Made by a program: the position numbers and the translations under genes. Shown one piece after another: positions 18,844 to 49,140 of a stretch of DNA of 64,000 nucleotides. The notes under the pieces were generated by a model. The model was not told the DNA's origin. It saw only the letters and a program-made list of their open reading frames with translations, and did not search any database. Origin of the DNA: Psammoneis japonica (taxonomy: Eukaryota); contig QPGO01000030.1 in the NCBI GenBank assembly GCA_008632985.1, positions 310,001 through 374,000 of the forward strand, read 5' to 3'. The first letter of the stretch is position 1, and the number at the start of each line of letters is the position of its first letter.

Positions 18844-20330
18844 TTGCATCTCACATCTGCTTCATTCTGTTGCCTGGCACTGGCAGGTGCATTCTTGAGT
18901 GACAAAGACATGGTGTGTCCAGTTCTTCAAATGTGTCAGAAGAGGGCCACAGTGTCTTGAGCAGATGCTGCCTGCATTCGGCATGATCTTGCAACAAAGC
19001 AAGCCAGGAAAAAAGCCACAAAGAACGCTGTGCTGGAAACAGTCAAGGCCAAACAAGCCAAGTTTGGGTCTGAACAAATGCCTTGCAGATTCATCCCAGG
19101 TCTGGCACTTGGATGCAACATCGTCAAGGCTCGTGACACATGCGCAACACACTTGAAAAAGAGAACAAGATTCTGGCACAACTGAGTGACTTTTGTGGGA
19201 AGCATCCAACCTGACATTGCCTCCACCTGCCTTGGCAACCCACCAGGTTCTTCAAAAAGGAGAGACAAAGAAGGAGGTCAACCCAGGGGACAACTGAGTC
19301 ACTTTCACTTTCGCCGGAAGCATCTGACCAGACATTGCCTCCACCTGCCATGATGACCCCATCAGCAACTTCAGAAAGGAGGAAGAAAGGAGGCAGACCC
19401 AAGCAAGGGGGAACCCAGCACCTCCATGGTTGTCAAGAAAATGCAAGCCAATGTTGCTGCCACCCACATGCTTGTGCATCTGCTCAAGAGCCAGTGTGGA
19501 CACAGCCATGAGAGACCAAGGTTGCAGGATGAAACAGTCAACTTCCCCATGGCACCATCAAAGAAACAATTGTGAAAGCAAAAGCAAAGTGTTCTCTTGG
19601 GGAGGACATCACCTTGTCAGCTTCTCTTGTCACAAAATGTGCAGGCCACAAAAACGCAAATCCGAGAGGTGTGCATTCTCCGATGGCTCTCCTCCTCCAA
19701 CGGATTTTGGTCACACATTTGATGGCACTGCAGTGCACCAAGTCACCATCACAGCAAAAAGAGCTCCTTGAGGCCACCAACTCAATGATCAAAGGATCAC
19801 CCACTTGAAAAAAAGGTTGTTGAGTGGAGATGCTGCAACTGCGGTTGGGGGGGGGGGGGGGGGGGGGCACCAGATGATGAAAACAATCTCACAGCAAGCA
19901 AAGAGCAAAGCTGGGGCCCAAGCCTCTTGCAAGAGCTTTGTGAAAAGGCACAAGGATGAGCCAGGAGCAACATTTCCAAAAGGGTTTGATGCCAACAGGC
20001 AGAAGTGGACAACTTGCTGCAACACTGAGTTCACATGCATGAAGAGAAGTCCATGCGAGCGGCCGCACACGACCTCCTGCAGACATGCAGAGGAGCCACA
20101 GCAGAAAAGCTTGACAAGCCCAAGTTCGGAGATGTCAAAAGAAAAGAGTTGCATCCAAAGCTGAGGTGCATGGCCTTGTGACCCAATGCAAGATGATGAG
20201 CGGCCATTGCTCCACTTGCGTGGACGAGACTGGAAACAATGCCAGCCAGAAAGACGGGGGTGCAACTCATCGAAACATCAAGTGTTTGTGGAGAAGAAGG
20301 GCTCTGCGCACTGCTGCCCATGAGACTGCG
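18600..20330. mobile_element. TpA-free, CpG-reduced repeat-derived island 1 (decayed element, family unknown)
   Basis: One TA in ~1.7 kb by manual scan. Internal ~55 bp duplication (~19176-19232 vs ~19290-19350) and a poly-G tract at ~19847-19867. Confidence 0.65.
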
Positions 20331-23211: not shown

Positions 23212-23531
23212 ATTATTTGTTCAGTTTTCGGTCGCTTCTTCGTCCTTTGTGGCAAGAGATACTTCCTTTCTGGAACCAATGTTCTCTTCTAGGAGCAAGC
23301 GAGAGTTTGCGTGATATGGTGATCGCGCAATGTGGTGGTCACGCCATGAACATTCTCCTTTTTGTGGCGCAAAGATCTACTCTACCTACTAGTACTTGTA
23401 ATCGCTTTTCTTTTAACAGAGTGAAAAACATCATTTAGTGACTGCCCGTAGTTAGCACTGCCTACAGCTTTAACCACTACATTTCAAATCCAGCAGAGAG
23501 ACGATTACGATTAGAAGCACCAACAAAGATC
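23212..23531 (+). repeat. Dispersed ~320 bp repeat, copy B (retains TA and CG)
   Basis: Same orientation as and homologous to 18510-18843. Confidence 0.85.
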
Positions 23532-27666: not shown

Positions 27667-29178
27667 CTAGACCGATTGTTGTTTGACTGCAAGTCGTTTT
27701 TGCAACATATTTTCTCGAGCGGTGGCAGTACGTGCTTGACTGGACGTGCGTCCCCCGCCATTTCGTTTGCCATCGCAAATCAACTCCTCGATGCGTCGTA
27801 CGGGATCTGGCAACAGCCGTAGTCGACAAGCACCAGAAGTTTGATTCAGGAACGGTTTCAAATAAGGCATGACTCGTCCTGGAAAACCTCCCCCGTTCCC
27901 ACTCTTGTGGGCGTCGCAGTCTTCGATCCAAATGGCACCATCCGCACGAACCCGCAAGAAACATATCCATGGATCTTCGTAGATTGACAGATGCAGGTCG
28001 GATCGAATGTTTGATAAAATGGCATCATTGAGGAAGGTTTCCGAGTGCATGGCCGTCCCAGGAGCAGCAACATGTGTGGCGTAATGGTCAATTCGACGGA
28101 ACCTTTCGGCAGCCCACAACTTGACAGCGTCGTAGGGGCCGACAATCATGCGGTCGTTGATGGGATATTTGGCAAAATCGGGAATGACAACCACGTTGGA
28201 TGTTGTGGTAGATTGTATCACGTCTGGGTTACCAGCGATGTTCGCTATTGAGTCTGAAGATAATAGAGACTGTGGTTTACCGTTGCTGTTGGCGTCACTG
28301 ATTCCACCAGCAGTGGTAGATTCTTCTTTCGGAATGGCATATATATCCACCGGGGTAATGTATACAACGTCACTTCGCATCATGGCCACTTGCTGATAAC
28401 GTTTTTGTGGCTGCTGCGTTTGTTCCATGAGGTTCCATACAGCATCAATGCTATGCCATTGTTTGACAATATTGTCAATAGTATCAGGATACACATACGT
28501 TGGTTCCGTATACGGAAAATACGTAAATGTGCCGTCGCTATTGCGAGTGCTGCGATATTTCATCAACTGTGTTTGTCGTTTCTCCCAGAAGGTTTCGTTG
28601 GTGTCATGAATAATGGAAACCCGGGGTGATGTATGAGTTCCTTTAGGAATCACGCTTCCGTTGCTGTACAAGTCTGCAACGGCCTTGCTCAGCAATTGAA
28701 TGTCATCCGGGTGGATCATTCCTCCCCTTCCGGATCGCCCATTGGATACTTCTCGATCCACGTGATAATAGTGGACAAAGTAATCACAACCATAGCGAAG
28801 ATTCGGTTGAATGACATTTTCCACCAAGGATGGCAAGACGTATTGTCGAAAGGCGCGAGGAAGTCCAAAGAGTAAAATGGCACAAGATCCATAGGGTGGT
28901 AATTCGGTTGGTGCAACTCTTGGCTTTGGATTGGTGTTGTTGCTGATGTTTCCTTTGCCGACGTTCTTTCCCATACTTGTCGGTTTCATAATAGCTGAAT
29001 GACCATGATGATCCACAGGAAAAGTTGCGTCACCCGCACGACGCTGTCCTTCGCCGTCCATCAAATGTATCAGAGCTGTATTGGAGACAAACGTCACCAC
29101 CACAAATATGAACAGGACATACATGACGAGCTTGTTGGCGGAGATCGCGACTCCGCTTCTGCGTGGAAGACATTTCAT
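27667..29178 (-). CDS. Type II membrane protein, glycosyltransferase-like
   Basis: Single N-terminal TM helix and stem, followed by CAILLFGLPRAF, MMRSDVVY, NDRM and HSETFL motifs. Confidence 0.65.
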   Translation of the reverse strand: MKCLPRRSGVAISANKLVMYVLFIFVVVTFVSNTALIHLMDGEGQRRAGDATFPVDHHGHSAIMKPTSMGKNVGKGNISNNTNPKPRVAPTELPPYGSCAILLFGLPRAFRQYVLPSLVENVIQPNLRYGCDYFVHYYHVDREVSNGRSGRGGMIHPDDIQLLSKAVADLYSNGSVIPKGTHTSPRVSIIHDTNETFWEKRQTQLMKYRSTRNSDGTFTYFPYTEPTYVYPDTIDNIVKQWHSIDAVWNLMEQTQQPQKRYQQVAMMRSDVVYITPVDIYAIPKEESTTAGGISDANSNGKPQSLLSSDSIANIAGNPDVIQSTTTSNVVVIPDFAKYPINDRMIVGPYDAVKLWAAERFRRIDHYATHVAAPGTAMHSETFLNDAILSNIRSDLHLSIYEDPWICFLRVRADGAIWIEDCDAHKSGNGGGFPGRVMPYLKPFLNQTSGACRLRLLPDPVRRIEELICDGKRNGGGRTSSQARTATARENMLQKRLAVKQQSV

Positions 29179-29599
29179 CTTCTTGTTTAGCGACTTGCTC
29201 GTGCAATGAAGAAAAGATCGAATACGGGTATGAGCTAAATTCCACCGCTCACATCATCAGGGTGTCCCGAGATTGGCGTCCTGGTAACAAATCGGTATTA
29301 ATAACCCGCAGCGACTGCTCTGTCATTTAACGCAGTACCGGAAGTCGCCATTGCGTCTCCCAAAGGCAGGAGGCAAAAAAAATAAGCGGCATCAGCGACC
29401 GACGCGCGCGGTCGACGCATGGACTCACCACACGATGGAGAGTTGCATGTTGTGATACGAATGGACTGACCATCCAAATCACGACGGGGATCCCCTCACA
29501 GGATCGAAGATCAAGATGGAAGAAGCTCAACTTTCGTGGCCCCCAACTGTTCGAGAGACAAAATTTACCAAAAAGCTTCATCCCACGAAGAAAGAATTA

Positions 29600-32500
29600 G
29601 TTGTCACAATGAAGAATCACTGTTTTGCCCCACTTTTTTTTTGTGCACAACAGTGTGCTTTTCTTGTTTTTCTCTCTTCAGCTGGGCAAGCCAGCCAAGG
29701 ACAGTGGTGTGGCAGCAGGTGCAAATGTCTTCATCATGCTCCACTGCTGTTTGTGTCAGGCCTGAGTCCATCTGTTCTGCTGTCCATTTGGGACCTTTGA
29801 GTTTCCTGTGCCATTGTGATCCTTCAATGCGCGCTGACAGGTTTTCATCCTTTGCAGGCTGTGAGAGAAGGGTGTGTGTTTCACACAACAAGAAACAATG
29901 TCCCCATGCCAACAAACATGTCTGCCATTCTTTGGGTGCTGGTGATTGGTGAAAACAAGTGGGGGCAGAGACTGGCCCTCACATTTGCTGTGCCCCCCAT
30001 GTTTTTGAGCTGGTGGTGCTGAGATGATTGCCCGCCGTCCTGGGTCACACCTCATTTGCCCAGGAATTCTGCATGGGAGCCTTTGCAGCTGTTTGACAAG
30101 CTCAAGTTTCAGAAACACTTCCATGTTGTCACACAAGCTGCAAGCCTCCAGAAAGCATGGCAACTGGCAAGTGCCAAGAACACCCTTTGAGAATGGACAC
30201 ATTTTGATCAGACATGGCTGCCAGGACAAGAGAATCTGGGTCAGTTGCTTGTCACCCTTGTGTGATGAAATGACCAACATGCAAGGATTGTGAACAACAG
30301 GATGAGCTGGAGATGCACTTCACTGCCCTCATCTTTGCATCTTTGAGCCCAGATGTGGCAATGTCCATGTCATCTCAAAACAAAAAGCTTCCTCAAGAGA
30401 CTCCAGAATTGCACTTGCAAACATCCAGCATTGTCCCAATTTGTTGTTGGTCAGTTTAGAGAGTGCATTTCCAAGTCTGGATTGTGCACTGGTGGGCTCT
30501 TTGGTTTCTTTCATTTTTGCTTTGCACTCAACAATGTAGAAATCCCAACATTGTTTGGGGGGGGGGGGAGGTTCTGTGAGGGTCTTTCAAAGATGCTTTT
30601 GAAATGGTCTGCCAAGAACACCAGCCATTGACAGGACAGTCTTGACCTTGACACCACAAATCATCACACTGCAAGAAGAACACTGTGTTTCAAAAAGCAC
30701 AAGGCCATCTTTGGGAGATTGTGTGGCTGAGACAAGAGTGGGGCAAGGTTGCTGTTTCCTGTGACTTGGATTTGAGGAAACAAGAAATCAAAAGGCCCAC
30801 ATTTGCACCTGCCACCACAGCACTCATGGCAGCCAGCTTGTCATCAAGTCTGTTTTCTGCAGAATGAAGCACAAACTCAAACCCAGAAGAAGAGGAGTTG
30901 CCAGCAGGGTTGTTGAAGGTCCCATCTCCAAAATCCTGTCCAAGCCAGCAACAGCAGTGTTGCAGCAACAGAAGAAATGTTCAACATCCTTTGTGGAGTT
31001 CATTGTTTTGAGGCATGCCAGGGGGACATGTTTTCAATGTGGCATCTCTTCACCATGATTGCTTCTTTGGTCAATTTCAACCATGCAATTGGTTTTGTCA
31101 GTTTCAAAGACATCTCTGGGAATCTGTTTTGCAGGAGAGACTCCATTGGATCATTTTGTCATGACCCTGAAAAAGTCAGGTGAGCGGGTGCTTCACACAG
31201 ATCAACTCTGTGTGAGTGCCTCCATGATGACACTTTCCATGACATTGTGCTGGGACAATGTTTTTCTTGGTGCAAGCTTTTGACCAGGACAACTTCAGAA
31301 GCAGCTGTGCAATGCTTTTCACTTTGAGCCATGGAATGCAAGTGTGGTGCAACATGTGGCAGTGGCAAGAGGAAGGAGACAATTCATCCCATGCATGTGA
31401 AGTGCAGTTGTCAAAAGTGGCAAGCTCTGCATGGCATGAAACCTTCAGGACAGTGCACAAAGGCAGTGCCCTTTTCTTCTGATGGGGCAACATTTGAAGG
31501 AATCTCTACAATCAGGTGTGTGGTCGTGCACCACTCACCTTTGATGGGAAAACACAACCAAGGGAAACAATCAGTGACAACAATTTTGTGCATGTCAAAA
31601 GGAAAGAAATGCATGAAACCCCAACCCTTGGCTGCAGAGCAAAAACCCAAGGCACCCAACACTTTGAAATGACACCTTCAAGGGTGGCTGTCAAGTTCTT
31701 GTTTGACGCTTTGGCAAAAGCAACTGTGACACACCCCAGTGCTTGGGAAATGATCCCACACACTCTTGCAAGTTGGTTGAACAGGGGGGTTGGCACACAG
31801 AGTTGAGGCTGCCGCCGTCATTGCTGCAGAGGAAAGGCATTCTTCATGCCCTGCACTTGGGAGCCTTTGCAGCTGTTTGACAAGCTCAAGTTTCAGAAAC
31901 ACTTCCATGTTGTCACACAAGCCACAAGCCTCCAGAAGGCATGGCAACTGGCAAATGCTGAGAACACCCTTTGAGAATGGAGACATTTTGATCAGACATG
32001 GCAAGCCAAGAGAATCTGGGTCAGTTGTTGCTTGTCATGGTGTGATGAAACGAGCAACATGCAAGGATCAAGAACAACAGGATGAGCTGGAGATGCACCT
32101 TGCTGCCCTTGCCTTTGTGTCTTTGAGCCCAGATGTGGCAATTTCCATGTCATCTCAAAACAAAGAGCTTCCTCAAGAGACTCCAGAACTGCACTTGCAA
32201 AACATCTGGCATTGTTCCAATTTGTTGTTGGTCAGTTTTGAGAGTGCATTTCCAAGTCTGGATTGTGCATTGCCAGGCTCTGTGGTTTCTTCACTTTTTG
32301 CTTTTTGCTCAACAATGTAGAAATCCCAACATTGTTTGGGGGCTGGGGGGGAGGTTCTGTGAGGGTCTTTCAAAGATGCTTTTGAAATGGTCTGCCAAGA
32401 ACACCAGCCATTGACAGGACAGTCTTGACCTTGACACCACAAATCATCACATTGTGAGAAGAATGCTGTGTGTCAAAAAACACAAGGCCATCTTTGGGAG

Positions 32501-35500
32501 ATTGTGTGGCTGAGACATGAGTGGGGCAAGGTTGCTGTTTCCTGTGACTTAGATTTGAGGAAACAAGAAATCAAAAGGCCCACATTTGCACCTGCCACCA
32601 CAGCACTCATGGCAGCCAGCTTGTCATCAAGTCTGTTTTCTGCAAAATGAAGCACAAACTCAAACCCAGAAGAAGAGGAGTTGCCAGCAGGGTTGTTGAA
32701 GGTCCCATCTCCAAAATCCTGTCCAAGCCAGCAACAGTGGTGTTGCAGCAACAGAAGAAATGTCCAACATCCTTTGTGGAGTTTCGTTGTTTTGAGGCAT
32801 GCCAGGGGGGGCATGTTTTCAATGTGGCATCTCTTCACCATGATTGCTTCTTTGGTCAATTTCAACCATGCAATTGGTTTTGTCAGTTTCAAAGACATCT
32901 GGGAATCTGTTTTGCAGGAGAGACTCTGTTGGATCATTTTGTCATGTTGCCCTGAAAAAGCCAGGTGAGGGGGTGCTTCACACAGATCAACTCTGTGTGA
33001 GTGCCTCAATGATGGCACTTTCCATCATGACATTTTGCTGGGACAATGTCTTTCTTGCATGCTTGGCAAGGATGAAACATCAGAGTCGGCTGTGCAGCCA
33101 TTTTCACTTTGAGCCATGGACACACAAGTGTGGCACAACATGCAGCAGCAGTGACAAGAGGAAGGAACAATTTGTCCCATGATGCATGTGAAGTGCAGTT
33201 GTCAGAAGTGGCAACCTCTGCAGAGCATGAAGCCTTTGGGACAGTGCGCAAAGGTGGCACCCTCTTCTTCTGATGGGGCAACATTTGAAGGAATCTCTGC
33301 AATCAGGTGTGTGGTGGTGTGCTCACCTTTGGCAAGAAAAATGCAACAAAGGGAAACAGTCAAGGACAACAGCTCTCTGTGCATGTCAAAAGGAAAGAAA
33401 TCCAAACAACAACCCCCAGCCCTTTGCTGCAGATCAAGAATCCAAGGCACCACAACACTTTGAAAAGACACCTTCAAGGGTGGCTTTCAAGCTCTCCTTT
33501 GGTGCTTTGGCAAAAGTGTGTGTTGAGCTTGCCCCCCAATGTGAGAAGCAAAAGCCTGCTTTTGGCTCACAACAAAAACTGCAGAAGGCCCCATGTGCTG
33601 CCAAAACCTTTTACAAATCATGTTTTCTGCAGAATGAAGCACAAACTCAAACCCAGAAGAAGAGGAGTTGCCAGCAGGGTTGTTGTAGGTCCCATCTCCA
33701 AAATCCTGTCCAAGCCAGCAACAGTGGTGTTGCAGCAACAGAAGAAATGTCCAACATCCTTTGTGGAGTTTCGTTGTTTTGAGGCATGCCAGGGGGGGGA
33801 TGTTTTCAATGTGGCATCTCTTCACCATGATTGCTTCTTTGGTCAATTTCAACCATGCAATTGGTTTTGTCAGTTTCAAAGACATCTGGGAATCTGTTTT
33901 GCAGGAGAGACTCCATTGGATCATTTTGTCGTGACCCTGAAAAAGTCAGGTGAGCAGGTGCTTCACACAGATCAACTCTGTGTGAGTGCCTCCATGATGA
34001 CACTTTCCATGACATTGTGCTGGGACAATGTTTTTCTTGGTGCAAGCTTTTGACCAGGACAACTTCAGAAGCAGCTGTGCAATGCTTTTCACTTTGAGCC
34101 ATGAAATGCAAGTGTGGTGCAACATGTGGCAGCGGCAAGAGGAAGGAGACAATTCATCCCATGCATGTGAAGTGCAGTTGTCAAAAGTGGCAAGCTCCAC
34201 ATGGCATGAAACCTTCAGGACAGTGCACAAAGGCAGTGCCCTTTTCTTCTGATGGGGCAACACTTGAAGGAATCTTGGTGGCTGTCAAGTTCTTGTTTGA
34301 TGCTTTGGCAAAAGCAACTGTGACACACCCCAGTGCTTTGGAAATGATCCCACACACTCTTGCAAGTTGGTTGAACAAGGGGGTTGGCACACAGAGTTGA
34401 GGCTGCCGCTGTCATTGCCGCAGAGGAAAGGCATCATGGGGAAGTCACTTCTGCATGTGAACAAAACTGCAAAGAAATTCTTGGCACCTTGTTCATCCCT
34501 TTTTGGGGCATCCCAGATGGAGTTGTTGGCATGCTGCATTGGGAGCTTCTTCATGCCCTGCACTTGGGGGGGCCTTTGCAGCTGTTTGACAAGCTCAAGT
34601 TTCAGAAACACTTCCATGTTGTCACACAAGCCACAAGCCTCCAGAAGGCATGGCAACTGGCAAATGCTAAGAACACCCTTTGAGAATGGAGACATTTTGA
34701 TCAGACATGGCAAGCCAAGAGAATCTGGGTCAGTTGTTGCTTGTCATGGTGTGATGAAATGAGCAACATGCAAGGATTGTGAACAACAGGATGAGCTGGA
34801 GATGCACTTTGCTGCCCTCACCTTTGTGTCTTTGAGCCCAGATGTGGCAATTTCCATGTCATCTCAAAACAAAGAGCTTCCTCAAGAGACTCCAGAACTG
34901 CACTTGCAAAACATCTGGCATTGTTCCAATTTGTTGTTGGTCAGTTTTGAGAGTGCATTTCCAAGTCTGGATTGTGCATTGCCAGGCTCTGTGGTTTCCT
35001 TCACTTTTTGCTTTGTGCTCAACAATGTAGAAATCCCAACATTGTTTGGGGGCTGGGGGGGAGGTTCTGTGAGGGTCTTTCAAAGATGCTTTTGAAATGG
35101 TCTGCCAAGAACACCAGCCATTGACAGGACAGTCTTGACCTTGACACCACAAATCATCACATTGTGAGAAGAATGCTGTGTGTCAAAAAACACAAGGCCA
35201 TCTTTGGGAGATTGTGTTGCTGAGACAAGAGTGGGGTAAGGTTGCTGTTTCCTGTGACTTAGATTTGAGGAAACAAGAAATCAAAAGGCCCACATTTGCA
35301 CCTGCCACCACAGCACTCATGGCAGCCAGCTTGTCATCAAGTCTGTTTTCTGCAGAATGAAGCACAAACTCAAACCCAGAAGAAGAAGAGTTGCCAGCAG
35401 GGTTGTTGAAGGTCCCATCTCCAAAATCCTGTCCAAGCCAGCAACAGTGGTGTTGCAGCAACAGAAGAAATGTTCAACATCCTTTGTGAAGTGCTTTGTT

Positions 35501-38060
35501 TTGAGGCAAGCCGGGGGGGGGGCATGTTTTCAATGTGGCATCTCTTCACCATGATTGCTTCTTTGGTCAATTTCAACCATGCAATTGGTTTTGTCAGTTT
35601 CAAAGACATCTGGGAATCTGTTTTGCAGGAGAGACTCTGTTGGATCATTTTGTCATGTTGCCCTGAAAAAGCCAGGTGAGGGGGTGCTTCACACAGATCA
35701 ACTCTGTGTGAGTGCCTCAATGATGGCACTTTCCATCATGACATTTTGCTGGGACAATGTCTTTCTTGCATGCTTGGCAAGGATGAAACATCAGAGTTGG
35801 CTGTGCAGCCATTTTCACTTTGAGCCATGGACACACAAGTGTGGCACAACATGCAGCAGCAGTGACAAGAGGAAGGAACAATTTGTCCCATGATGCATGT
35901 GAAGTGCAGTTGTCAGAAGTGGCAACCTCTGCAGAGCATGAAGCCTTTGGGACAGTGCGCAAAGGTGGCACCCTCTTCTTCTGATGGGGCAACATTTGAA
36001 GGAATCTCTGCAATCAGGTGTGTGGTGGTGTGCTCACCTTTGGCAAGAAAAACACAACAAAGGGAAACAGTCAAGACAACAGCTCTCTGTGCATGTCAAA
36101 AGGAAAGAAATCCAAACAACAACCCCCAGCCCTTTGCTGCAGATCAAGAATCCAAGGCACCACAACACTTTGAAAAGACACCTTCAAGGGTGGCTTTCAA
36201 GCTCTCCTTTGGTGCTTCGCAAAAGTGTGTGTTGAGCTTGCCCCCCAATGTGAGAAGCAAAAGCCTGCTTTTGGCTCACAACAAAAACTGCAGAAGGCCC
36301 CATGTGCTGCCAAAACCTTTTACAAATCACCAGTGTGTCTCAACCATTCATGTCCTTGTTGGCAAAGATTTCTTTCTAGACCATCTCTGCAAATGTGCAA
36401 TCACAACAACACCAACATCAAGAAGGAGAGATTGAAACCAGCATCAATGAGAAAGTTTTTGTCCAACCTCAAATGTGATGACTTTGTTCAAAAGCTCATG
36501 CTCCACCAGTGTGTCAGTCATTCTGCCAGCACAGGCCATCTGCTTCTGGGCTTGCTCAATGGAGGCCACCAAACTGCTCACCTTCAACAAAGCCACTTGA
36601 CCAACACAGGGTTGCTCAATGTAGACAAGTCAATCACACAAAGGGCATGTTGCTGGGTGGAAGCTTTGGCAAGGGCCACAGTCTTGAATGACAGCATTTC
36701 ATTGCAACCCTCATGAAGTTGAAGACCTCCTGTGGCAAAAAAGATTGTGGGACTTTTCAGTGGAACAAGCAACAGCCTTAACTGGAGGGGTTGGTGGGAG
36801 GGACATTGTTGTTTGAAGGTGCTGTGCAGCTGTGTCTGTGCTGATGCCACTTCCACAGGGGGGTGAGCAGGGAGATTGTGGCCTGCACAGCAGCGTGCTG
36901 CTTGGCTGCCAATGTGACCACCTTTGCAACCCCCTTGATGTGTGCTCCAAAGGCCAGGCATGACAAAGTTGCAGCAGGGATGTGCAAAAACAGAGTCCCC
37001 TGTGCTTTGGTGATGTTGCAGATCAGTTTGAAAGGTGGCCGCTGGGTTGCAACAGTCTCCTCCTGTTCCAGTGCTCTGTGAGTGCACTGCACAAATTTCA
37101 CTCTTGACAACACTGCTTGAATGTCACAACAACCAAGATGTGGCTCTGCAACCTGAACACACATGCAAAATTAACCCAAGACAAAACAGCCACACAGCCC
37201 CTTTCAGCCAGGGCCCCTCAGCAACCCAGCCATGACTTCTGTTTGTGGCTGGGGTTGTTGGCTCTCATTGCAAAATGACAAGGAAGTCTCACACATGCAT
37301 TGATGCATTGACAAAAAGAACTTCTGAATCAACAAAAAAGAAGACAAAAGCAAAAACTGTGGGGTGCATTTGTTGAGTTGATGCACATGATGATTCAATG
37401 AACAAGATTCAAGCTGTGAAAACCCATGCCAACAAACACAAATCAAGGCAAAAGAAACTCAAAAACATGACACCAGATGACTCCTTCAAAGGCTGACCTG
37501 CTTGGCTCCAGGAAAATCAAATGGCACCATCGCTCAAAACAAAATGAGAGACAGACTTTGCCCCTGTGTGCTGAGGTTCTTGCACAAGTCTCCAACAAAG
37601 AGCTGGCTTTGATGCCTCTGGAAGCTGCACCTGCCACAGGCTCACACCTTTCAGCTCTGGCAATGTTGAAAGAATGAGGAGATGGCTGGCATGCAAAGTG
37701 GCAACATTGCTGGCAAAAGAACAGCAGCGGGTGTTGGCAGATGAGTGCGCACGTTTTTTTTTTTTTGCTCTTCTTGTGTGGGTGCACAGTGTGAGATGTT
37801 GAGTTGTTTTTTGAAGCTGCAGCCAAGGCATCTCTCTTGGCTTTTGCAAGTGAGCTTCTGGGGCACATGTTTGCAAAGATCCTGATGCTGCTGGGGCTGT
37901 GCTCGCACAAGTGGGGGTGCAGATCAGGCTGCTGTTTTTGAGCACGCGTGTTCATCCACAAACAGCAGCTGGCACTTCCCCCCCCCCCCCCCCAGCCCAA
38001 TGGCCCGATGCCGCAGTTGACACAGGTTGGGTTTCATTGTCGCCAACAACGTCATCGAGG
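29600..38060. mobile_element. TpA/CpG-depleted island 2: decayed element(s) with a nested tandem array
   Basis: Near absence of TA and CG with a TG/CA excess. All ORFs are short and almost Tyr-free. Poly-C at ~37978-37993. Confidence 0.7.
30075..36330 (+). repeat. Higher-order tandem duplication (A-B1-A-B2-B1-A-B2), main period ~2.7 kb
   Basis: Block A (cctttgcagctgtttgacaagctcaag) starts at ~30075, ~31859 and ~34570. Block B (gttttctgcaRaatgaagcacaaactc) starts at ~30852, ~32635, ~33622 and ~35344. 31859-33620 is near-identical to 34570-36330. Confidence 0.92.
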
Positions 38061-38399
38061 GAATGACAGCTAGCTAGCTAGCTAGAGCCACCACTGGCTA
38101 CTAGAGTAGAGAGCAGTTTTGGCTTGCGAAATTGAGTGCGTCGTCCGCTTGCGTGCACGCTTGTCCGAATTTTGCGCAATGTTGCGAAGCATCATCATCG
38201 CTCCATCAACTCGCTCTCGCACTCATCAACACGCCGCTGCTTTATTTCACCTTCAAACTTCACAGTCAAGCCAGAGACATGGCGAAGGATCGAAGCTGTG
38301 CCGATATTAATAAGAAGCTAGGCAATCAAGAAGAACGTAATATCAGGGGCGAAAGACATCGGGGTGGTAGAATCATCAAAACTACAGTAGGTCACAATC

Positions 38400-39953
38400 A
38401 TGGGCTCTAACTCTCAAACCTTTACAAATCAACTCCCAACGTCGCGCCTGGGCCAACGTCACGAGACGCGTGAATCATTCAATGCAGCAGTTTCGCTAAG
38501 ACCTTGCAAATCGAAACAATTCTCCCTGGTTGTGGTAACGGAACCTCATTGCCGGCGAATACTACTCGGAATGAAACACCGTGGCTTTGGAAAGGGCATG
38601 TTCAACTCATTCGGTGGCAAATTATCGGAGGGAGAGACCGACGTGCAATGCGCATCTCGAGAATTAGCAGAAGAGTGCGGAATCAGCGTGCCAGCTTCGA
38701 CAATGAAACATCTCAAGGTTGGGGTACTCCATTTCACCTTCGAAGATGACCCAGATGAGATGTTGGTGCACGTTTTCCGTCTTGATATTTCTTGCTCTTC
38801 GCAGAAGGGCAGCCACGAGTATTTTCGTGTTGACCCGCAGTGCATTCGAGGATGCGAAGAGATATCTCCCAAGTGGTTCGAAGACTGGCGCGCGATACCG
38901 CTGGACAATATGTTTGCAGATGATTCTGTCTGGCTCACCCGTCTTCTCTCGATTGGCGTTGAACAACAAGTGTGGTTTGATGGATTCTTCCACTTCAAAC
39001 CAGGAGGACAGGCAGTGAACAGCGTGCAGGACTACTACATGTCTTTCAAGATAAAAACTCAAGACAGAGCACTACGGAACGCCAACGGGCTATCTCTCAA
39101 AAAGAGGTTATTCCATGCTCTTCGTTCTAATAAAATACGCTCACCGTCCGTAAAAGAGTTCGAAGAGAGTTATGCTTTCACTAATGCTGTCCGTTCGGCT
39201 TTTGGCAAGAACGAAATCGATGTTGTCATTGACGTGGCTGGGGGGCATGGTGCTATTTCTGCACTCATGCTTGTTACTACATCCGCGAACGAAGCTGTCG
39301 TCATAGATCCAGCAAAGGTTGGAAACGGAGGCGTCGAAAAAGCGTTTGGACCATACTACAGCGGAAAAATTATCCGCTACCGGCACGAGTGCTTGCGGAC
39401 AGGACTTCCGGAGGAGTTGAAGTTGCAACTAGGAAAGACTAGCAGAAGGCGCATCTTAGTGATCGCGTGTCATGCGTGTCAACACCTTTCAGATGAAACT
39501 GTTCGCATTGCAATCACTTTTGGTGTCCATGTCGCAGTCATGCCTTGTTGTCAGAAGGACCAATCGCCGGGCTCTTCCTGGAAGGCTGCGAGCAAGAATC
39601 TTTCGATTCCTGTTGAAACTGTCATGGACATTTTACTCGCTGGTAAAGCCATGTCATGGGATATTGGTGCCTCATATGATGTACGCTTAAGGACAATTGA
39701 CCGCGGCATCACTCCCCAGAACAGAATCATTGTTTGCCGTGCAAAGGATGATAATATAGCTTCGACTACCCTGACAGTTGAAAGGGCACACGAGAAGTTG
39801 CAGAAAGTTTATAAGAAGGCACACAGCAACAGCCAGAGGGAGAAGAGTCGAAACGGTACAAAAGTGACACGTATTTCATACCAATGCCTTGCGAGTGGCG
39901 CTCTAGGATTCGCAAGTTGTTTCTTGGTGATGTGTTTGTATCAAAGAAAATAA
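38400..39953 (+). CDS. NUDIX hydrolase (MTH1/NUDT1-like) fused to a SAM methyltransferase-like domain, with a C-terminal TM
   Basis: LLGMKHRGFGKGMFNSFGGK...RELAEECG Nudix box and IPLDNMFADD. Then IDVAGGHG, ACHACQHLSD and MPCC methyltransferase-like motifs, and a hydrophobic C-terminus. Confidence 0.85.
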   Translation: MGSNSQTFTNQLPTSRLGQRHETRESFNAAVSLRPCKSKQFSLVVVTEPHCRRILLGMKHRGFGKGMFNSFGGKLSEGETDVQCASRELAEECGISVPASTMKHLKVGVLHFTFEDDPDEMLVHVFRLDISCSSQKGSHEYFRVDPQCIRGCEEISPKWFEDWRAIPLDNMFADDSVWLTRLLSIGVEQQVWFDGFFHFKPGGQAVNSVQDYYMSFKIKTQDRALRNANGLSLKKRLFHALRSNKIRSPSVKEFEESYAFTNAVRSAFGKNEIDVVIDVAGGHGAISALMLVTTSANEAVVIDPAKVGNGGVEKAFGPYYSGKIIRYRHECLRTGLPEELKLQLGKTSRRRILVIACHACQHLSDETVRIAITFGVHVAVMPCCQKDQSPGSSWKAASKNLSIPVETVMDILLAGKAMSWDIGASYDVRLRTIDRGITPQNRIIVCRAKDDNIASTTLTVERAHEKLQKVYKKAHSNSQREKSRNGTKVTRISYQCLASGALGFASCFLVMCLYQRK

Positions 39954-41721: not shown

Positions 41722-44700
41722 GATGATTGATATACCGGAGTAGTAAGACTAAGTCGATGCTTTGATCAAGTGGTCAACTTCGGAATTGTGAGAGGATCAG
41801 CGTGATTGATGTTTCGACGCTTGCTCGGATGGGATTGCTTCGACATACTAGACTTTTCGTACATTCTACGGACTAACGATTTATCGTCAAAACCATCCGT
41901 CAATCACGAAAGAATAGCGGGCGGGCAGGTTTTGTACACAAAAGGTGATAGTACAATGATCATACCATGCCCTACGCCGCTTGATGCGTAAGGCCAACAA
42001 ACGCTCATCAGACTTCATAAACACGCATTTTCGTAGCAGTCATATACAACGTTGAATGAGAAGATAACATTTTCTTGGTCATGGGAAGTGGGCGGAGGAA
42101 CTTCTTCTCACTGACTTTGAACTAACTACAACCCTCTGTTCCATCTTCAAGCCACTGTGCTGTTGTCCATCCCATTGTCTCTTGCAGCCTGTCTTACATC
42201 TTGGTGTTCTTGGCTGTGCTGTCATCACATTGTGCACTCCAGTCATTGTCATCATCAGAGGGGGAGGTCAATGCAGGCCCTGCATGGCTCCATTTGGTTT
42301 TCTTGCATTTGATGTGCACCAACCAAACACAATTTGATCAACCTCCATTGTTTTGATGGAGCCTCATTTGATTCCTGTGGCACCTGCAACAACCCAGCAG
42401 GAGCTGAAGCACGAGTTGCAGAGTTCCCAAATTTGGCATCATTCATCCTCTCCACAAATGATGTGGATTGCCCTCAACTCTCCAGCTCCTGCCATTTGCC
42501 CAAGGGCATTGCATGTGCACCATCTTTTCCAGCGATGCTGAGTTTTGCAGGATTTTTGTCTGCTCTTTTCTCCCACAATGCTCCAGCTTGACCAGGCTGC
42601 AACAAACAATTCAACTTGTGTCTTTCTTGCCACAATTTTTTGTTGCCATGTGTCGCCCCTCTGCTCTCCACACACTGGGTGCCAATTTGACCCTCCTCAT
42701 TTTGTGCATCTGATGAGTCTTGCACTGTTGAGCACCACAGTTTTGTGGCTCCTTCCATTTCATCATCAAGGGTGTGAGCCTTTGGTGTCTTTCTGGCTTG
42801 ATCTCTGGCAGAACAGCTGTTGATTTCACCTGCGACTTTTTTTGCCACACTCAAAGCACAAGCACAATGGCATCTTCCGTCAACCCAGGCAGGTGTGCCA
42901 GAGATTGGCTGGCCATCAAGTCTTCTCCTTGTTGCACTCTTTTTTGTTGTGCACAGCTTCACAAAAGATTGTGAAGTGAGTTGACGATTGCATGCCAGTG
43001 CATTTTCAAGAATGACTGGCGCACAAAGTGTTGCTTGTGATGCTGGCATGGCACAACACTCACAGGCTGCCTTTTTTTTGTCTGTGTTCAGACAAGGCAA
43101 GGAAACACCATGAAAAAGTCAAGGCTCAAGAGATGAAAAGCAGAGTGCAAGTTGACAAAAAGCCCAAACCAAGGAGCACCAGGGGGCTGTCTCTGCATTC
43201 TGCCACAAGACCAAGGTTGGCATCAATCTTTGGACATCTGACACTTGTGAGGATTTGTGACAGCAGCTTTTTTTGCTTTGTGCAAAGCAAAGAAGTCTCA
43301 CACAGCAAGAAAGTTTCTAACAGCAGACTCAGACTCATGGTTGGTTGAGTCTCAGGATCCTTCTTCTCTGTGCATGCAGTCAATGCCGTCATTGACAATT
43401 TTTTTCAGTCACTTGCTGGCGCACTCTCTGGAGAGCTGCCAGTGAAGTCAAGTGATGACTTTGTACAGCCTGCTGCACAGGTCATGTCTTGCAACATCCA
43501 ATTTGAAAGCCAGGGCATGATGATGCCAAGATTCATCAACAGACAAAGGGGGCTTGTCTGCTCCTGTGGGACAGATCATTTTGTGTGTCTCAGCACGCCT
43601 GTGAGCAACTCATTGCACACCATCAAAGTGCAGCTCACCAGCAGACAACCAATCACAAGGCTGAAAAGCTTTGCTTGAATGACTTGCCAAGATTTTTCAG
43701 CTGCCTTGGCTGAGACTGAAGCTTCTGATGCACTTGAAAGCTGGGGAGCATTGTCGCTGTGGAGTGTGAATTGTTGTGCCATCCACTTCGCAACTTGTGC
43801 AACCCAGAACTCATGTTGTCAATTGCAGCTGCAGCACCACCATTTGCACAACAACCAATTGATGGCAGAGCTGCTGGACATTGACACAACTTGTGCCAGT
43901 GACTTTGTTGCATCATTGTGCTGTTGTTGGTGATTTCCAAAAATGTGCTGACTTCTCGATGCTGCAAGAGGCAGGCAGGAGCGACATTTTGTGCTGCCAA
44001 GAAAACAAGCTTTCTTTTGTTGTTTCTTGTTCAAAACACTGTCAACAACTCCATTGTGTGCAGCCAAGCAGTGTGAAGCCAAGGTTTCTGGAATCAGTTG
44101 TGGAGCAAGATGAGCAATCAAATGAGTCACCGCATCATGCACCAATGGTTTGCAATGAGCCCACGCTTTGGAAAGGGGGCTGGCAAAAGAAAAGAGTTGC
44201 CTGAGCATCTTGTTTGTCTCATCTGCACTTTGTGGCCCAGACAAGCAATGCAGCCAGTTTCCAAGAGAGCACGGGGAGTGCCAATGGCAACACTGCCGCA
44301 GTTTCAAGATGCCAGGAGCTGGAAGCAAAATGACAGGCACACCACCAACAAAACCATTTTGGCTCCACAAAGATGATCAGCAACAAATGCTGCTGCAGCA
44401 TTGCTTCAAATGATGGGGCAACCTGCACACTAATTTGCAAACATGTGGGGAGCCAATGGCAAAAATGCTGCAGTTCCAAGACGACCATCAACAGAGCAAA
44501 CCTGAAAATTAATTTGCCAGCAAAGTGCTCAAAACTTGAGCCAGTCATCTTCATCAAACCACACAGAGACCACAGCACACATGCTTTGATTTTGTGTCCT
44601 TGGCAAGCCACACTTGCTTGTTGTGTGACCTGTCTTGGAGCAGCTTTGGCGCAGCTGTGCTGGCACAACTTTTTCAGAGGCTTGCACTTGTTCTCTTCTG

Positions 44701-44819
44701 CTGGCTTCCTTTTCACATGTTTTTTTGCTTCTTTGTGCTGCTGCTTTGTTTCTCTGCATGTTTCTGACTGCATGTGCACTGTGCTCAAAGAACAAGCACA
44801 AACAAAAAAGGAGTTCCCC

Positions 44820-45085
44820 CAATGGCCCAAAGCTTTTGCACTGCTTCTGTGGAGCAAACGCCTTGCGGAGAATCAGATCATGACAACAGATTGTCTGGAT
44901 GTGATCAACATTGACATCTTGTGTGTTGTCATCATCTTCCAATTGCATTTGCAGTTTTTGACATCTGACCACAGCTGTGTGATTGATCTGTCCTTTGCAC
45001 GCATCCACAATTGTGGTGCAATTGATGACACACATGACAATGTGTGATCACAAACATGCACAATTCCACGCAATTCCTTCTGCTT
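44820..45085. repeat. LTR-like direct repeat, copy 1
   Basis: 44821-44901 matches 47837-47918, and 44895-45085 matches 48957-49137. The two copies bracket the gypsy coding relic. Confidence 0.7.
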
Positions 45086-45099
45086 CACAGTGCATGCTG

Positions 45100-47775
45100 C
45101 ACTCACCTCCCCAATTGCACATTAGATTCACTTGTCAAACAGCACATTTTGGAACTCCCCAAGAGTTTCTGCAATGGACAGCAGCTCTTTTTCCATTGTG
45201 GTGCATCACATCTGCACTCCATTTGGCTCTTGGCTGTGGAAGGCAACAGGTTGTTTGTCTTGGGATGTGACCTCACCCAGTTGAGAATTGCTTGCTTCTG
45301 TGTGCATTTCAAAGGGTTTGTTGAATCTTGGTGTGACAACAACACATTTTTTGATGTGATTTGCTTCAGATTTTCAAAGGCTTTTTGTTCTGTGCTTGTC
45401 CATTGCCACTTGACCTTGGTTGAGGTGAGTCTGGTCAGGCAAGTGTGTGAGATTGTCAAGGCCACATGTCTCAACAACAGCTGATCGTGCCAACAAAACA
45501 CTGGAATTCCTCATGTGAGTCTTGGGAGCAGCAAACAATTGAATTGCTTCCACTTTCTCAGGGGTCAGTTTGGTGCCTTTTTGCAAGATGTGAAACCCAA
45601 GATGGCCTGCTTTGGGTTTTGCAAAAAAGGATTTTTTGGCATTGACTTTTGAGCTGGCTTGTTCAAGCCATGTGAATGTGGTTTTGAGCTTCTGGAGGTG
45701 ATCTTTGAAGTCAACACCTTTTGTCAGACATGGTGTGTTGTCAACACACATCCTGACAAATTCTGAGCCTGCCATGAGCTCACTCTCGTGTGTTTTTAAA
45801 AATCATGTGGAGCTCCACAATTCCCGTGGGGGGCTGCAGCACTCAAATTTGCCGCAAGGCATCATTGCTGTGCACAGCCAATGCACGTGTGCGGTGTTGG
45901 CTTGACGTGGCAGCACCCCATGTTCAAATCAAGTGACATTGCATGCATGAAGCCCTTGAGCTTCTGCAGCATGTCGCGAACATTGAGCAGGGGATGTGGA
46001 GCATGCATTGACCTCCAACTCAACTCACAAAAGTTGGGTGAAAATCAAACTCCACCATTTTTCTTGGGTTGAAGAAAGGTTGGAGCTGCCCACTCTGAGT
46101 GGTTTGTTTTTCTTGAGACTCTCAGTTCACAAAGTCTTTTGCCTTTCTTTCTGGTGGCTGCCTGATCAACTGGCTTTCCAGCCCATGTGCCTGAAGAGCT
46201 GTTGAAAAGATTTTCAAATCTTTTTGGAAGAACAAAGTTCAGTTGCTTCTGCTCCTACGGAATGAGGTGAGTTGCTGCTGCAGTCACATTGCTGATGTTG
46301 GCAGCATGACAGTCAGCATCAAGGATCCTGGGTGTTGACCCTGTCATTGAGACACTTTCCATGGCACAAGATTCCTCAATGTGATTGGCAATCAGCTTGA
46401 AGACCTCAGCATCAAAGAAAACATCCACACACTCTTCATTGGTGCAGTTGCATCTTCCCATTTAATTCCTTCATTTGCGATGTTGAGCATGACTCCAAGA
46501 CTGCTCATCAAGTTTTGCCCCATGATCACATCATGTTGACATGAAGAAAAGAAGGAATGCTGCCACATGTGCCATCTTCTCAATCATTTCATGCTTGTCC
46601 AATTCAGGCAATGAGAACTGCACCCTGCATTTGCCATTGGTTGTAAAGAGCCCTCCCTTGGTTTCCCAAGTTTTGGTGGCAGATTCTTCAGTTCTCATTT
46701 TTGGCGTGAATTTGCACAAAATTGTGGTTGATGACATTCTGCTGTCAAGAAGAACACCCAGAGCAATGATTGCTGGACTGGCATCAGTTGTTTTGGCCCT
46801 TTTTTTTTGGGCTTCCTGACATCCAGTGATGTTCTTGACCACTTGTCAACAGGTGCCAGTCATTCCTTGGATTTGCTGCGTGTCATCCTGTCAAGTTGGC
46901 AGTTTTCTTCACTGAGATTGTCAGCACCAGAATCTTCACCCTGGCGCTTTCTGTCACTCTTCAACAAAGTTGCCTTGAGAGTTTCATTGATTGTCTGAGC
47001 AATCATGGTGTTCAACTCTTCCTTGTGAGAGGTGTTTCTATTGTCATGGCATGACCACGTGCAATTGTGCCATTTGAATGTTGTCATTTTGGGCTCTGCT
47101 CAGAATTCTCAAGGCATTCCTTCAGCTGGTCTTTTGGTGAAAAGGAGGACAGAACTTGCATTCTTCATTGACCTCCTGAGTCCATGCAGTGTTTTCTTGA
47201 ATCTTTGCTCACTCTGGTTTCTTAAGATCATCCCAGTGCAGATGTGGCTTCTGGTTTTGAAGTGCATTCTTTGGGAAGACATGGTTTGAGAGATGATGCA
47301 GACATTTTTTGAAAGATCCTTTGGCTTCTTTGTCATCCATGTTTGTCACCTTGTTTCTCAAAAATTCAAAGAGTGTCTCCCTGCAACAACATGTGCACAA
47401 GCCAGAGCTCATCAGCTTGCTTGTGAATTTTCTGTCCAACCAAGACTTGGTGACATGTTTTGAGGATTTCAGTGCACTTGGGGACACTCCTTGTTTGTTG
47501 CAGTGCTCAACATTGACCATGCAGGCATGACTCTTCTTGTCCTTGGGGTGAAAGCACTGTTCGATCTTGAGGCACTGACTTGGTTTGAGCATCTTTGGCT
47601 TGGAAATTGACTCCAATGGCACAGGAACAATCTTCTCCTGCTTGATGATGGAAGACTTGTTGGCTGCAACATGAGGTGAAAGCTTCATTTTTGTGTTTTT
47701 ACCTTCTGCAGTGTGTGTGCACAATGCACTGTGCACAAGAAATGAGTGCAAACAAAAGTGGAATGGATCGCACAA
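45100..47775 (-). pseudogene. Ty3/gypsy LTR retrotransposon gag-protease-RT-RNase H relic (integrase not seen)
   Basis: Protease VLLDSRMSSTTI...WETKGGLFTTNGKCRVQFSLPEL and HDVIMGQNLMSSLG. RT FVRMCVDNTPCLT...KVNAKKSFFAKPKAGHLGFHI (decayed YIDD...YLG). Linker WQWTSTEQKAFENLK and RNase H start LLSHQDSTNP. Confidence 0.88.
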
Positions 47776-47836
47776 AGTGGAAAATCATGAGATTAGATTT
47801 TATTCTGAGATTTGAAGTTTCTCCAAATGAGCTGTC

Positions 47837-49140
47837 AATGGCCTGAAGCTTTTGCACTGCTTCCATGGACTGAAAGCCTGATGGAGAATCAGATCATGAC
47901 AACAGATTGTCTGGATGCAAGCACAATTCTGCCTTGGTTTCATGGCCACAAACCCTGCATGTTTTTCTGTGCAAGCTCTGGCACTGATGTTGCCTTTTTC
48001 AGATGGCACAACAATGGTTCTCACCTGCCTGTTCAGATGTGTTCTCACATTGACATTGTGCCTTCGTTCTGTGATCATTGGCAATCTCATGCAGTGGGAG
48101 GTGATTGGCATCAAGCCCCCTCTTGGTTCATTTGCCCAGCACTCTTCTTGGCACATTTTGTTCTTGCATGCAAAGTTTCTGCTTCTGCATGTTCTGCAAG
48201 TCATTTCAGATGGATGACTTGCCAAGCTGCCAATTGCTCTCTCTCCACACCTCTCAAGCATCAACAACCCCCCTTCTTCCTGCTGTCCATTTGAGTTTCC
48301 TGAGTCATGTGGTGGACATTTGCCCATCGTTGCCGTTTTCACAAGTTTGAAGATGACACCAACAACCAACTCAGCATGCATTGGCCATTCTTCCATGCAC
48401 CGGCAAGTCTGCACAAGTTTCAGTGCAAGCTCCATGTGTCTTGAAGGTCATTTTGGACAATTGACATGCCAAATTGCTGACTGCTCTTGGTCCATGCCTC
48501 TTTGGCATCAACAACCCCCCCCTTCTTCCCATTGCCTGCTTGAGTTCTCTGCTCCATGCTGTGAACAATCCTTTGTTGTTGCTGCTCCCAGAAGCACAAA
48601 TTTCAGCCCAGTTCAGCACAAGTTGGTGGTCAGTTTGTGTCCCTTTCTTTGTCATGTTGAAGCTGTTCCAGACTGCCTGTTTTGCCTTTGCCATCAGACC
48701 CAAACCCAGGAAGATGGCCTGATCAAAGCATTGAGAGCTTTCCTTTTGAAATCTGATTTTGCTGGTTGCTCCTGTTTTTGTTGTTGTCAGCTGTTTCCAG
48801 CAGGCACCACAGCCTTGTGGCATCATTCTTGACTGATTGTTGTGAGCCCCTGCCACATCACATGATGTGCTGGGGGTGTGGGTCAGATTGTTGCCAGAGT
48901 TGCTGGTTGGAAGCACAGAAGCACTTTAAAATGTAGAATTTGGGTTTTGCTTTTTGTCCGGATGCAGTCAACATCGACATCTCATGGGTCATTGTCATTG
49001 TTTGATTGCATTTGCAATTTTTGACATCTGATCACATCTGTGTGATTGATCTGTCTTTTGTGCACATCCACAATTGTGGTGCAATTGACACACACAACAA
49101 CACACAATTGTGAATGTGCACAATTCCTTCTGCTTGACAA
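47837..49140. repeat. LTR-like direct repeat, copy 2, split by a ~1.04 kb insertion (~47920-48955)
   Basis: The two halves of copy 1 are separated here. tgtc(t/c)ggatgca occurs at both insertion junctions. Confidence 0.65.

Follow-up and report, generated by a model that had tools for sequence, protein, structure and literature searches.

The repeat-induced point mutation (RIP) of fungi such as Neurospora ruins transposons through DNA-level transitions that are restricted to particular blocks; CpA becomes TpA, so that TA is enriched, and the process requires duplicated sequence. A second process, CpG decay, arises from the deamination of 5-methylcytosine on methylated transposons, which turns CG into TG or CA, and the methylation of diatom transposons is known. 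Here we describe a stretch of nuclear DNA from the diatom Psammoneis japonica (GenBank assembly GCA_008632985.1, contig QPGO01000030.1, positions 310,001 to 374,000), in which three islands have lost nearly all of their TA and, to differing degrees, their CG. This stretch of 64,000 nucleotides is called the window; all coordinates, like those of an earlier note made from its letters alone, refer to the full stretch and to its forward strand.

A process with the chemistry seen here has been described in a rhizarian alga, Bigelowiella natans, in which hypermutation of TpA to TpG or CpA was found in mutation-accumulation lines (Mettrop et al., 10.64898/2026.01.13.699255). In two integrated viral blocks, 230 of 231 mutations were A to G or T to C, all at TpA, and the rate, which reached ~6e-7 per site per generation in some lines only, corresponds to a de novo rate ~1000-fold above that of the genome (10.64898/2026.01.13.699255). 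The authors propose an ADAT2-like enzyme, and reverse transcriptase and transposase domains were enriched among TpA-poor genes (10.64898/2026.01.13.699255). In the available portion of that preprint, diatoms are not mentioned and CpG has 0 occurrences.

A thymine modification on repeats is also on record. The available text of two studies of dinoflagellates describes 5-hydroxymethyluracil, made by TET/JBP-type enzymes, as enriched on transposons, where it marks and silences repeats and overlaps 5-methylcytosine (PMC11572971, PMC11071213). Early work cited there had found that T in TA and TC is preferentially replaced; however, a base-resolution map of Breviolum revealed no sequence preference (PMC11572971, PMC11071213).

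The islands of P. japonica are a diatom instance of the recently described TpA-directed hypermutation, here together with CpG decay. Among the papers listed in literature searches, as judged from titles and abstract openings, no description of TpA loss in diatoms was found.

Three islands depleted of TA and CG

Island 1 (18700-20100) holds a single TA and 17 CG, so that TA has been wiped out and CG retained in part. Island 2 (29600-38005, 8.4 kb) has 16 TA and 30 CG beside 941-942 TG and 954 CA, giving observed/expected ratios (o/e) of 0.03 for TA and 0.06 for CG, with TG and CA abundant. Island 3 (42130-51300, 9.2 kb) is likewise almost without TA and CG. When the three are pooled (18,978 bases), TA is found 43 times (o/e 0.03) and CG 109 times (0.10), TG stands at 1.75 and CA at 1.91, and the remaining dinucleotides lie between 0.77 and 1.28; in the window outside the islands, TA has an o/e of 0.57 and CG of 1.01. 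The combined shortfall of TA and CG in the pooled islands (2225) approximates the surplus of TG and CA (1951).

The edges of the islands are sharp. In island 2, the final ordinary TA lies at 29598, and normal CG density resumes at ~38006. Some 400-500 bases separate the start of each island from that of a flanking gene, and island 2 is flanked at ~400 bases by divergent gene starts, belonging to open reading frames (ORFs) at 27667-29178(-) and 38400-39953(+). The limits of the two depletions do not coincide. In island 1 and just past it, there is no TA between 18716 and 20333, though CG is dense again from ~20200, and TA-free DNA overruns CG-poor DNA at 20100-20330 and 37172-38071. Given these overruns and the 17 CG that remain beside one TA in island 1, the TA and CG processes have different footprints. 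The parts of island 2 that are unique (29600-30075 and 36330-38005, with no self-match within the window) are as free of TA and CG as its repeated part.

Both strands are affected, as the earlier note had claimed. Outcomes in island 2 are equal (TG 942 vs CA 954) and not clustered in runs (z -0.55), a test for strand-coherent TG or CA patches in this island was negative, and CA, TG and TA can occupy one and the same site in different copies.

The islands hold 68 ORFs of >=100 amino acids, commonly 100-250 amino acids long and on both strands. These are not genes and constitute a trap for gene callers; they are numerous and long because TAA and TAG are missing, leaving TGA as the sole stop. A Pfam search of these 68 ORFs gave nothing beyond two weak matches to reverse transcriptase and RNase H, plus noise. 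In islands 1 and 2, neither a viral nor any other Pfam domain was found in the ORFs: 42 larger ORFs had sub-threshold matches only, and 114 smaller ORFs had none. Among the smaller ORFs of island 3, 1 of 117 had a Pfam match. Searches with Rfam and ARAGORN returned 0 families and 0 tRNAs, and island 2 likewise has no Pfam domain.

Comparison with the described systems

The likeness to B. natans, as far as the available part of that preprint goes, is close. In both, A:T changes to G:C only at TpA and only in foreign or silent blocks, the rest of the genome being ordinary, and in both the long-term result is low TpA with high CpA plus TpG. Thus, transitions directed at TpA and confinement to silent blocks are both found here. 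A viral target is not: there, the targets are integrated giant-virus and virophage DNA, whereas here they are a retrotransposon relic and unclassified low-copy DNA. In addition, the rates in the rhizarian alga were measured directly, whereas here there are only indirect ratios of tens to hundreds; TpA in the virus blocks is at about half the genome level, whereas here its o/e is 0.03; and CG is co-depleted here. The CA<->TG flips and the steady state reported below are not described in that part of the preprint.

Fungal RIP resembles the present case in that a block-restricted flood of transitions is read through dinucleotide ratios. However, the chemistry is opposite, since TA is destroyed here (TA 0.03, CA 1.91, TG 1.75), and duplication is unneeded, since single-copy parts of island 2 have been erased (contig depth ~63 at 36300-37993). 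With neither a rise in TpA nor action on duplicated sequence only, RIP was rejected. CpG decay shares with the islands the change of CG to TG or CA, on both strands and in a delimited block (CG 0.10 in the islands vs 1.01 outside). It covers only half of the pattern, however: island 1 and the related elements from microbial mats described below lose TA and largely keep CG, and a process that erases TA while CG is largely kept must be separate from, and stronger than, CpG decay. As for 5-hydroxymethyluracil in dinoflagellates, it is a thymine mark on repeats in a related lineage of the stramenopile-alveolate-rhizarian (SAR) group, although the available text of those studies reports no mutational footprint; a link between such a mark and TpA loss may be considered.

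Four copies and the differences among them

The earlier note had reported tandem copies in 30075..36330 of island 2, and alignment bears this out. Four copies are present: A1 (type a, 30075-31840), A2 (type b, 31840-33620), P (partial type a, 33614-34434) and A3 (type b, 34547-36329). Copy P is 5'-truncated by ~770 bases, and the stretch matching A1 31506-31682 has been deleted from its interior. A spacer of 112 bases (34435-34546) is present at the P/A3 junction and, by alignment, not at the A1/A2 junction. A2 is 98.15% identical to A3 over 1786 columns and A1 is 97.0% identical to P over 664 columns, while the identity of A1 to A2 and A3 is 89.4-89.6% (89.4% to A2, 1685 columns). From these identities, the history of the copies is an old duplication that gave types a and b, followed by a recent duplication of the whole a-b pair. 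Most indels among the copies have lengths that three does not divide. Runs of G or C of 10-15 bases occur in island 2 (30558-30569, 35513-35522 and 37979-37993), and their length differs among copies. Tandem Repeats Finder did not detect the array, the period of which exceeds 500. In contigs from a single public sequencing run, the depth is ~63 on the unique parts and only 105-181 where two or three copies share sequence; this marks the tandem family as local, not as a repeat of high copy number.

The individual sites to which the earlier note had pointed are all found in the alignment of the copies. At one, gcTAag in A3 (34668) corresponds to gcTGag in A2 (31959) and to gcCAag in A1 (30175). 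The remaining sites are ggggTAag (35237) vs ggggCAag (32527), where A1 likewise has CA at 30744; gactTAgat (32550 and 35260) vs gactTGgat (30767); aaaCGagc (32051) vs aaaTGagc (34760); and gagtCGgc (33087) vs gagtTGgc (35798), where A1 and P have CA. In the parts of the window that are covered by contigs of the public run, the contigs have four other letters in 10 kb and none at the named sites, with the bins 30505-31172 and 33177-33510 being without contig and 30767 falling in such a bin. Two of the contig records, record 1 (28501-30103) and record 7 (36300-37993), each have 1 other letter.

Single-step differences that involve TA or CG are common by chance, because any transition in a TG or CA step makes TA or CG, and such steps cover 46% of positions (817/1787). 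The observed differences were therefore compared with 5000 trials in which as many transitions and as many transversions were placed at random. In the young pair A2/A3, there are 7 single-step TA/CG sites vs 10.3 expected and 4 CA<->TG doublets vs 0.06 (maximum 2); in A1/P, the corresponding figures are 7 vs 7.7 and 2 vs 0.08. In the old comparisons, the single-step sites fall far below expectation and the doublets far above it: for A1/A2, 8 vs 42 and 24 vs 1.44 (maximum 7), and for A1/A3, 9 vs 40 and 20 vs 1.25. Under a stricter count, the adjacent doubles in the pairs of copies number 21, 18, 4 and 2. The excess of doublets together with the deficit of single steps in the old pairs shows that TA and CG behave as intermediates, passed through only briefly on the way between TG and CA. 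In island 3, too, the internal repeats have diverged mainly by TG<->CA flips.

The earlier note had held that its claim should be given up if the differences were not enriched at TA/CG sites. As a share of all differences there is no such enrichment (7 vs 10.3 expected in A2/A3). Per site, however, there is: 3 of 7 ancestral TA/CG steps have changed between A2 and A3, vs ~3% per ordinary dinucleotide (binomial P = 0.0009). As a separate observation, transversions between A1 and A2 are fivefold more frequent inside TA/CG/TG/CA steps (31/759) than outside (7/844; Fisher P 2e-5); some of those in the steps may be alignment shifts near indels.

Events on the tree of copies

Changes were polarised by parsimony on the tree ((A1,P),(A2,A3)), using the 36 sites that vary among TA, CG, TG and CA and at which at least three copies are aligned. 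These comprise 19 flips common to A2 and A3 vs A1 or A1 plus P, 5 private flips, 3 three-state sites and 9 single steps, one of which (column 828) was discounted, lying at the badly aligned start of P.

At the three-state sites, both end states and an intermediate are present in different copies. The site at column 157 reads TG in A2 (31959-31960), TA in A3 (34668-34669) and CA in A1 (30175-30176). At column 1297, A3 has TG (35798-35799), A2 has CG (33087-33088), and A1 (31302) and P (34072) have CA; at column 1359, TG is found in A1 (31363-31364), CG in P (34133-34134) and CA in A2 (33149) and A3 (35860). In each case, parsimony puts the intermediate in the ancestor of a young pair, with resolution since then in one copy. 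Thus, the A2/A3 ancestor had TA at the first of these sites, which turned to TG in A2, and at the second an ancestral CG was resolved in A3. The private flips lie in A2 at 32069-32070 (TG->CA), 32110-32111 and 33342-33343 (columns 271, 312 and 1555), in A1 at 30955-30956 (column 941) and in P at 34198-34199 (column 1429). Gene conversion between copies was considered as their source and rejected, the donor state being present in no copy.

Four single-step removals also fall on terminal branches: TA->TG at 31959, CG->TG at 35798 and 31363, and CG->CA at 31001. Together with the five private flips, at least 9 removals of TA or CG postdate the young duplication; consequently, the process continued after it, just as the earlier note had proposed, and it may still be active. 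That the copies were caught midway, with the remaining TA and CG as residual sites, did not hold up. Instead, the island is near a steady state, and parsimony identifies 4 TA/CG as newly made out of TG or CA (32051, 35237, 33930 and 31707). Furthermore, for the 22 flips at which A1, A2 and A3 are aligned and which are not private to A1 or P, the odd copy is A1 in 19, A2 in 3 and A3 in 0. With A1 odd at 19 of 22, most flips were fixed before the young duplication, and the erasure was no single late burst.

Rates and sequence context

The baseline is given by the young pair outside TA/CG/TG/CA steps, where 970 positions hold 8 transitions. If the creation of TA and CG by ordinary transitions balances their removal, the standing counts of island 2 (1895 TG plus CA vs 16 TA and 30 CG) place removal at ~59 times the baseline transition rate for TA and ~32 times for CG. 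A simulation that starts from copy A3, with the rate ratio varied, was compared with the young pair. With a ratio of 1, it yields 0.02 flips. Ratios of 50, 150 and 500 yield 1.1, 2.0 and 2.7 flips, 8.4, 4.7 and 1.5 single steps, and 8.7, 3.2 and 1.0 TA plus CG per copy, respectively; the observed values are 4 flips, 7 single steps and 7-8 TA plus CG per copy. A single rate ratio as a full description was rejected on comparing the simulated with the observed counts, and since no single ratio fits, the result points to hot and cold contexts. On the evidence of the copies, TA and CG are intermediates whose mutation rate is tens to hundreds of times that of other sites.

The TA that survive in islands 1-3 (43, four of which are one site repeated across copies) are not a random sample of contexts. 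Only 3 of the 43 lie in ATA/TAT, vs 43.6% expected from the flanks of TG and CA (P 2e-7), and 22 of the 43 lie in TTAA or in CTAA/TTAG, vs 18.7% expected. These biases support the existence of hot and cold contexts and suggest that the TA mutator reads one or more bases outside the dinucleotide itself. Surviving CG, by comparison, lie in contexts that match expectation. Since 109 CG survive vs 43 TA, TA is removed faster.

A retrotransposon relic and related elements in microbial mats

Island 3 contains the relic of a Ty3/gypsy-type reverse transcriptase and RNase H (45106-45802, minus strand), which is frameshifted. The evidence consists of an RT_RNaseH_2 match (E 2.2e-6), with the end of RVT_1 and the start of RNase H in the correct order, and a match to foamy-virus Pol (E 0.002). 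With the relic as query, HMMER found 399 homologues (E<=0.001), of which the best reached 3.4e-17. For the alignment, 30 of the best 150 homologues were taken, mostly by rank, with very long polyproteins and some fragments omitted; columns past position 100, which lie beyond the frameshift, were not used. A word-index search for the relic among longer proteins found none, and a PDB match of its 55-amino-acid RNase H piece, to a galectin, was rejected as chance.

The tyrosine of the YxDD motif (tyrosine in 25/29 homologues) is cysteine in the relic, a second conserved tyrosine (24/30) is histidine, and a third, weaker tyrosine column (17/30, with phenylalanine in 8) has phenylalanine. In the seven arginine columns within query positions 1-100, the relic has tryptophan, glutamine and histidine in three, and arginine, lysine, serine and histidine (13/29) in the others. 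Tyrosine to cysteine or histidine, and arginine to tryptophan, glutamine or histidine, are the products expected of TA->TG/CA and CG->TG/CA.

Four public homologues of the relic, of metagenome origin, are also without or almost without tyrosine. The DNA around relatives of one of these was collected from contigs of microbial-mat metagenomes, giving 64 loci (L001-L064). No nucleotide similarity was found between these loci and the window. Three long loci encode protease, reverse transcriptase, RNase H and integrase domains, and 15 ORFs taken from these three contain retroelement domains only. Among the 64 loci, the o/e of TA is graded from 0.71 to 0.06, while that of CG is mostly 0.45-0.78 (range 0.20-0.90), and G+C rises from ~0.43 to 0.52 as TA falls.

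Six pairs of TA-poor and TA-rich loci, picked for contrast and not mutually independent, were then compared. When L002 is aligned with L030, the 98 TA of the rich copy read TA in 8, TG in 55, CA in 24 and other letters in 11 cases in the poor copy; there are 79 TA->TG/CA changes and 0 in reverse, 34 of 48 CG have stayed as they were, and the figure for transitions elsewhere is 64/874. The remaining five pairs have 36-84 forward and 0-2 reverse changes. These mat elements show the TA process to be real outside the present assembly and separable from the loss of CG. An exact-pattern scan of metagenome contigs for the three-state site gave 0 matches.

Several further features of the mat loci may be recorded. 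Some copies show a strand bias, with TA>TG exceeding TA>CA by 55 vs 24 (L002) and by 30 vs 8 (L001 vs L017). TA-poor tracts with normal CG occur inside longer loci, for example at 3000-4500 of L011. In addition, CG in the TA-poor copy where the TA-rich copy has CA or TG exceeds the reverse, in L002 vs L030 (28 vs 9, compared with no outgroup) and in other pairs; either the mutated copy could have undergone a weaker A->G change at CpA, or CpG decay could have gone further in its partner.

A model for the loss of TpA and CpG

Taken together, these results have led to a model that we regard as probable, in which the tandem copies sit in a silent, non-coding block that undergoes TpA and CpG transition processes in place and is near steady state. 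In this model, one process would convert TpA to TpG or CpA (A:T to G:C at TpA, on either strand), and another would convert CpG to TpG or CpA. Ordinary transitions would recreate TA and CG from TG and CA, and these would be lost again tens to hundreds of times faster. Half of the losses would return the site to its old state and half would take it to the opposite one, so that a completed cycle would appear as a CA<->TG flip, and TA, CG, TG and CA at a homologous site in different copies would be snapshots of one cycle. The signature has a definite direction and is restricted to sharp-edged blocks, both strands are affected, and the action took place in situ after the duplications. We infer that the CpG loss results from deamination of methylated cytosine on silenced DNA, and the TpA loss from an enzyme or a DNA mark that targets TpA where DNA is silenced or foreign. 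Adenine at TpA might be converted to inosine by an ADAT/TadA-like deaminase; alternatively, thymine at TpA might be modified in such a way that it mispairs with G. TpA reads the same on both strands, so that adenine deamination and thymine modification leave identical traces in sequence.

Several points weigh against this model. The standing TA plus CG and the single steps fit a ratio of ~50, but the 4 flips fit >=150, and the probability of at least 4 flips at a ratio of 50 is 0.013; rates must differ by context, or else chance is at work. A uniform fast process would not allow a TA to survive in every full copy, as tgTAga does in all three (30537, 32318 and 35028). The counts for the young pairs are small, at 30 differences for A2/A3 and 22 for A1/P, and parsimony can mislead in polarising changes when rates are so unequal. 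Finally, the public run that matches the window probably comes from the assembly's own sample and hence is not independent.

Four other explanations may be weighed against this model, and all four are weak. Very unlikely is the idea that the changes are adenosine-to-inosine editing at UpA, made in RNA before reverse transcription, so that TA-poor DNA arrived ready-made and nothing happened in place. Island 3 does contain a retrotransposon relic, some mat copies do show a strand bias (55 vs 24 in L002, 30 vs 8 in L001 vs L017), and the available text of two sources gives RNA adenosine deaminases a preference for U 5' of the edited A (10.64898/2026.01.13.699255; PMC11156358). However, the segmental duplication is local and did not arise by retrotransposition, and removals and flips lie on its terminal branches; the strand outcomes in the window's islands are equal; islands 1 and 2 have no retroelement domain (0 of 114 small ORFs, with sub-threshold matches only in the 42 larger ones); and the TA-free zone passes the CG-poor zone into flanking DNA. 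More improbable still is selection, in which the islands or their transcripts would work better without TA and CG, as in the avoidance of UpA and CpG in cytoplasmic RNA and RNA viruses. The two dinucleotides are jointly under-represented in expressed RNA and RNA viruses, according to the accessible part of one study (PMC3829696), and a flip could be read as a compensated change. Nevertheless, many copy indels are not multiples of three, the reverse transcriptase relic is frameshifted and has lost the tyrosine of its catalytic motif, and island 2 has no Rfam family, tRNA or protein domain; furthermore, the depletion is equal on both strands and, at an o/e of 0.03, far past known avoidance.

About as improbable as selection is the suggestion that CA<->TG flips occur in one step, by doublet mutation or by inversion of two bases, with the TA/CG sites being unrelated ordinary transitions. 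Since TG is the reverse complement of CA, a two-base inversion gives exactly this change, and in the old comparison there are more flips than intermediates to be seen (24 vs 8). However, at three sites the copies between them hold the intermediate as well as the two end states, the lack of TA and CG is left unexplained, and the one-way change of TA to TG/CA in mat copies (79 vs 0) needs no flips. An artefact of sequencing or assembly, in which modified bases were misread, as in long-read base calling at methylated motifs, and TA and CG written as TG and CA, is the least likely of all. It was named beforehand, in the earlier note, as a finding that would count against the claim, and the library type of the run is not on record. 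Even so, contigs assembled from the run's exact 31-letter words match the window both across island edges and inside the island, the one-way TA->TG/CA signature recurs in unrelated, short-read-style metagenome assemblies, and the copies differ by indels and transversions as well.

Beyond the model of in-place TpA and CpG loss itself, a broader and rather unlikely proposal can be made: that TpA is a self-complementary site which, where diatom chromatin is silent, carries a DNA mark that is inherited, with the loss of TA as its mutational footprint. In parallel with CpG and 5-methylcytosine, the modified base would be either thymine, in a form like 5-hydroxymethyluracil, or adenine. The thymine mark of dinoflagellates, the TpA hypermutation of Bigelowiella and the diatom islands would then belong to one ancient repeat-marking system of the SAR group. 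The bias against ATA/TAT (3/43) and the TA-free overruns hint at a TA process with its own sequence reading and its own domain limits.

Other features of the window

The window is gene-dense nuclear DNA with few introns, and its genes include those for Mg-chelatase H, ATP synthase gamma, U1-70K and NPR2. Comparison of ATP synthase gamma places the organism among the polar-centric diatoms, its identity being 85-86% to sequences named Ditylum brightwellii and 80-82% to those of Helicotheca and Odontella. Mg-chelatase H (55814-60629, plus strand) is split into three ORFs and NPR2 (61198-63575, minus strand) into two, probably by ordinary short introns or frame changes. The ORF at 38400-39953 (plus strand, 517 amino acids), which adjoins island 2, has a NUDIX domain; its match to the methyltransferase domain Methyltransf_32 is weak (25.4 bits, below the cutoff of 27). 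A 95-base match between 18516-18610 and 23218-23315 says nothing on TA.

Implications

A block-selective mutator that converts TA to TG or CA has been described once before, in the 2026 preprint on a rhizarian alga. New here are the time axis provided by nested duplications, the steady-state flip signature, approximate ratios of the rates, the biased contexts in which TA survives and the mat elements with their gradation of TA content. The diatom footprint, with its near-complete erasure and accompanying CpG decay, suggests that the process is widespread among major marine algae. It would then be a genome-defence or chromatin-linked process comparable to fungal RIP in reach and opposite to it in chemistry. 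The flip mode breaks the independence of sites that is assumed in repeat dating and alignment, and the loss of TA produces long false ORFs because the TAA and TAG stops are absent. The joint absence of TA and CG is a simple marker with which the silent DNA of diatoms can be mapped.

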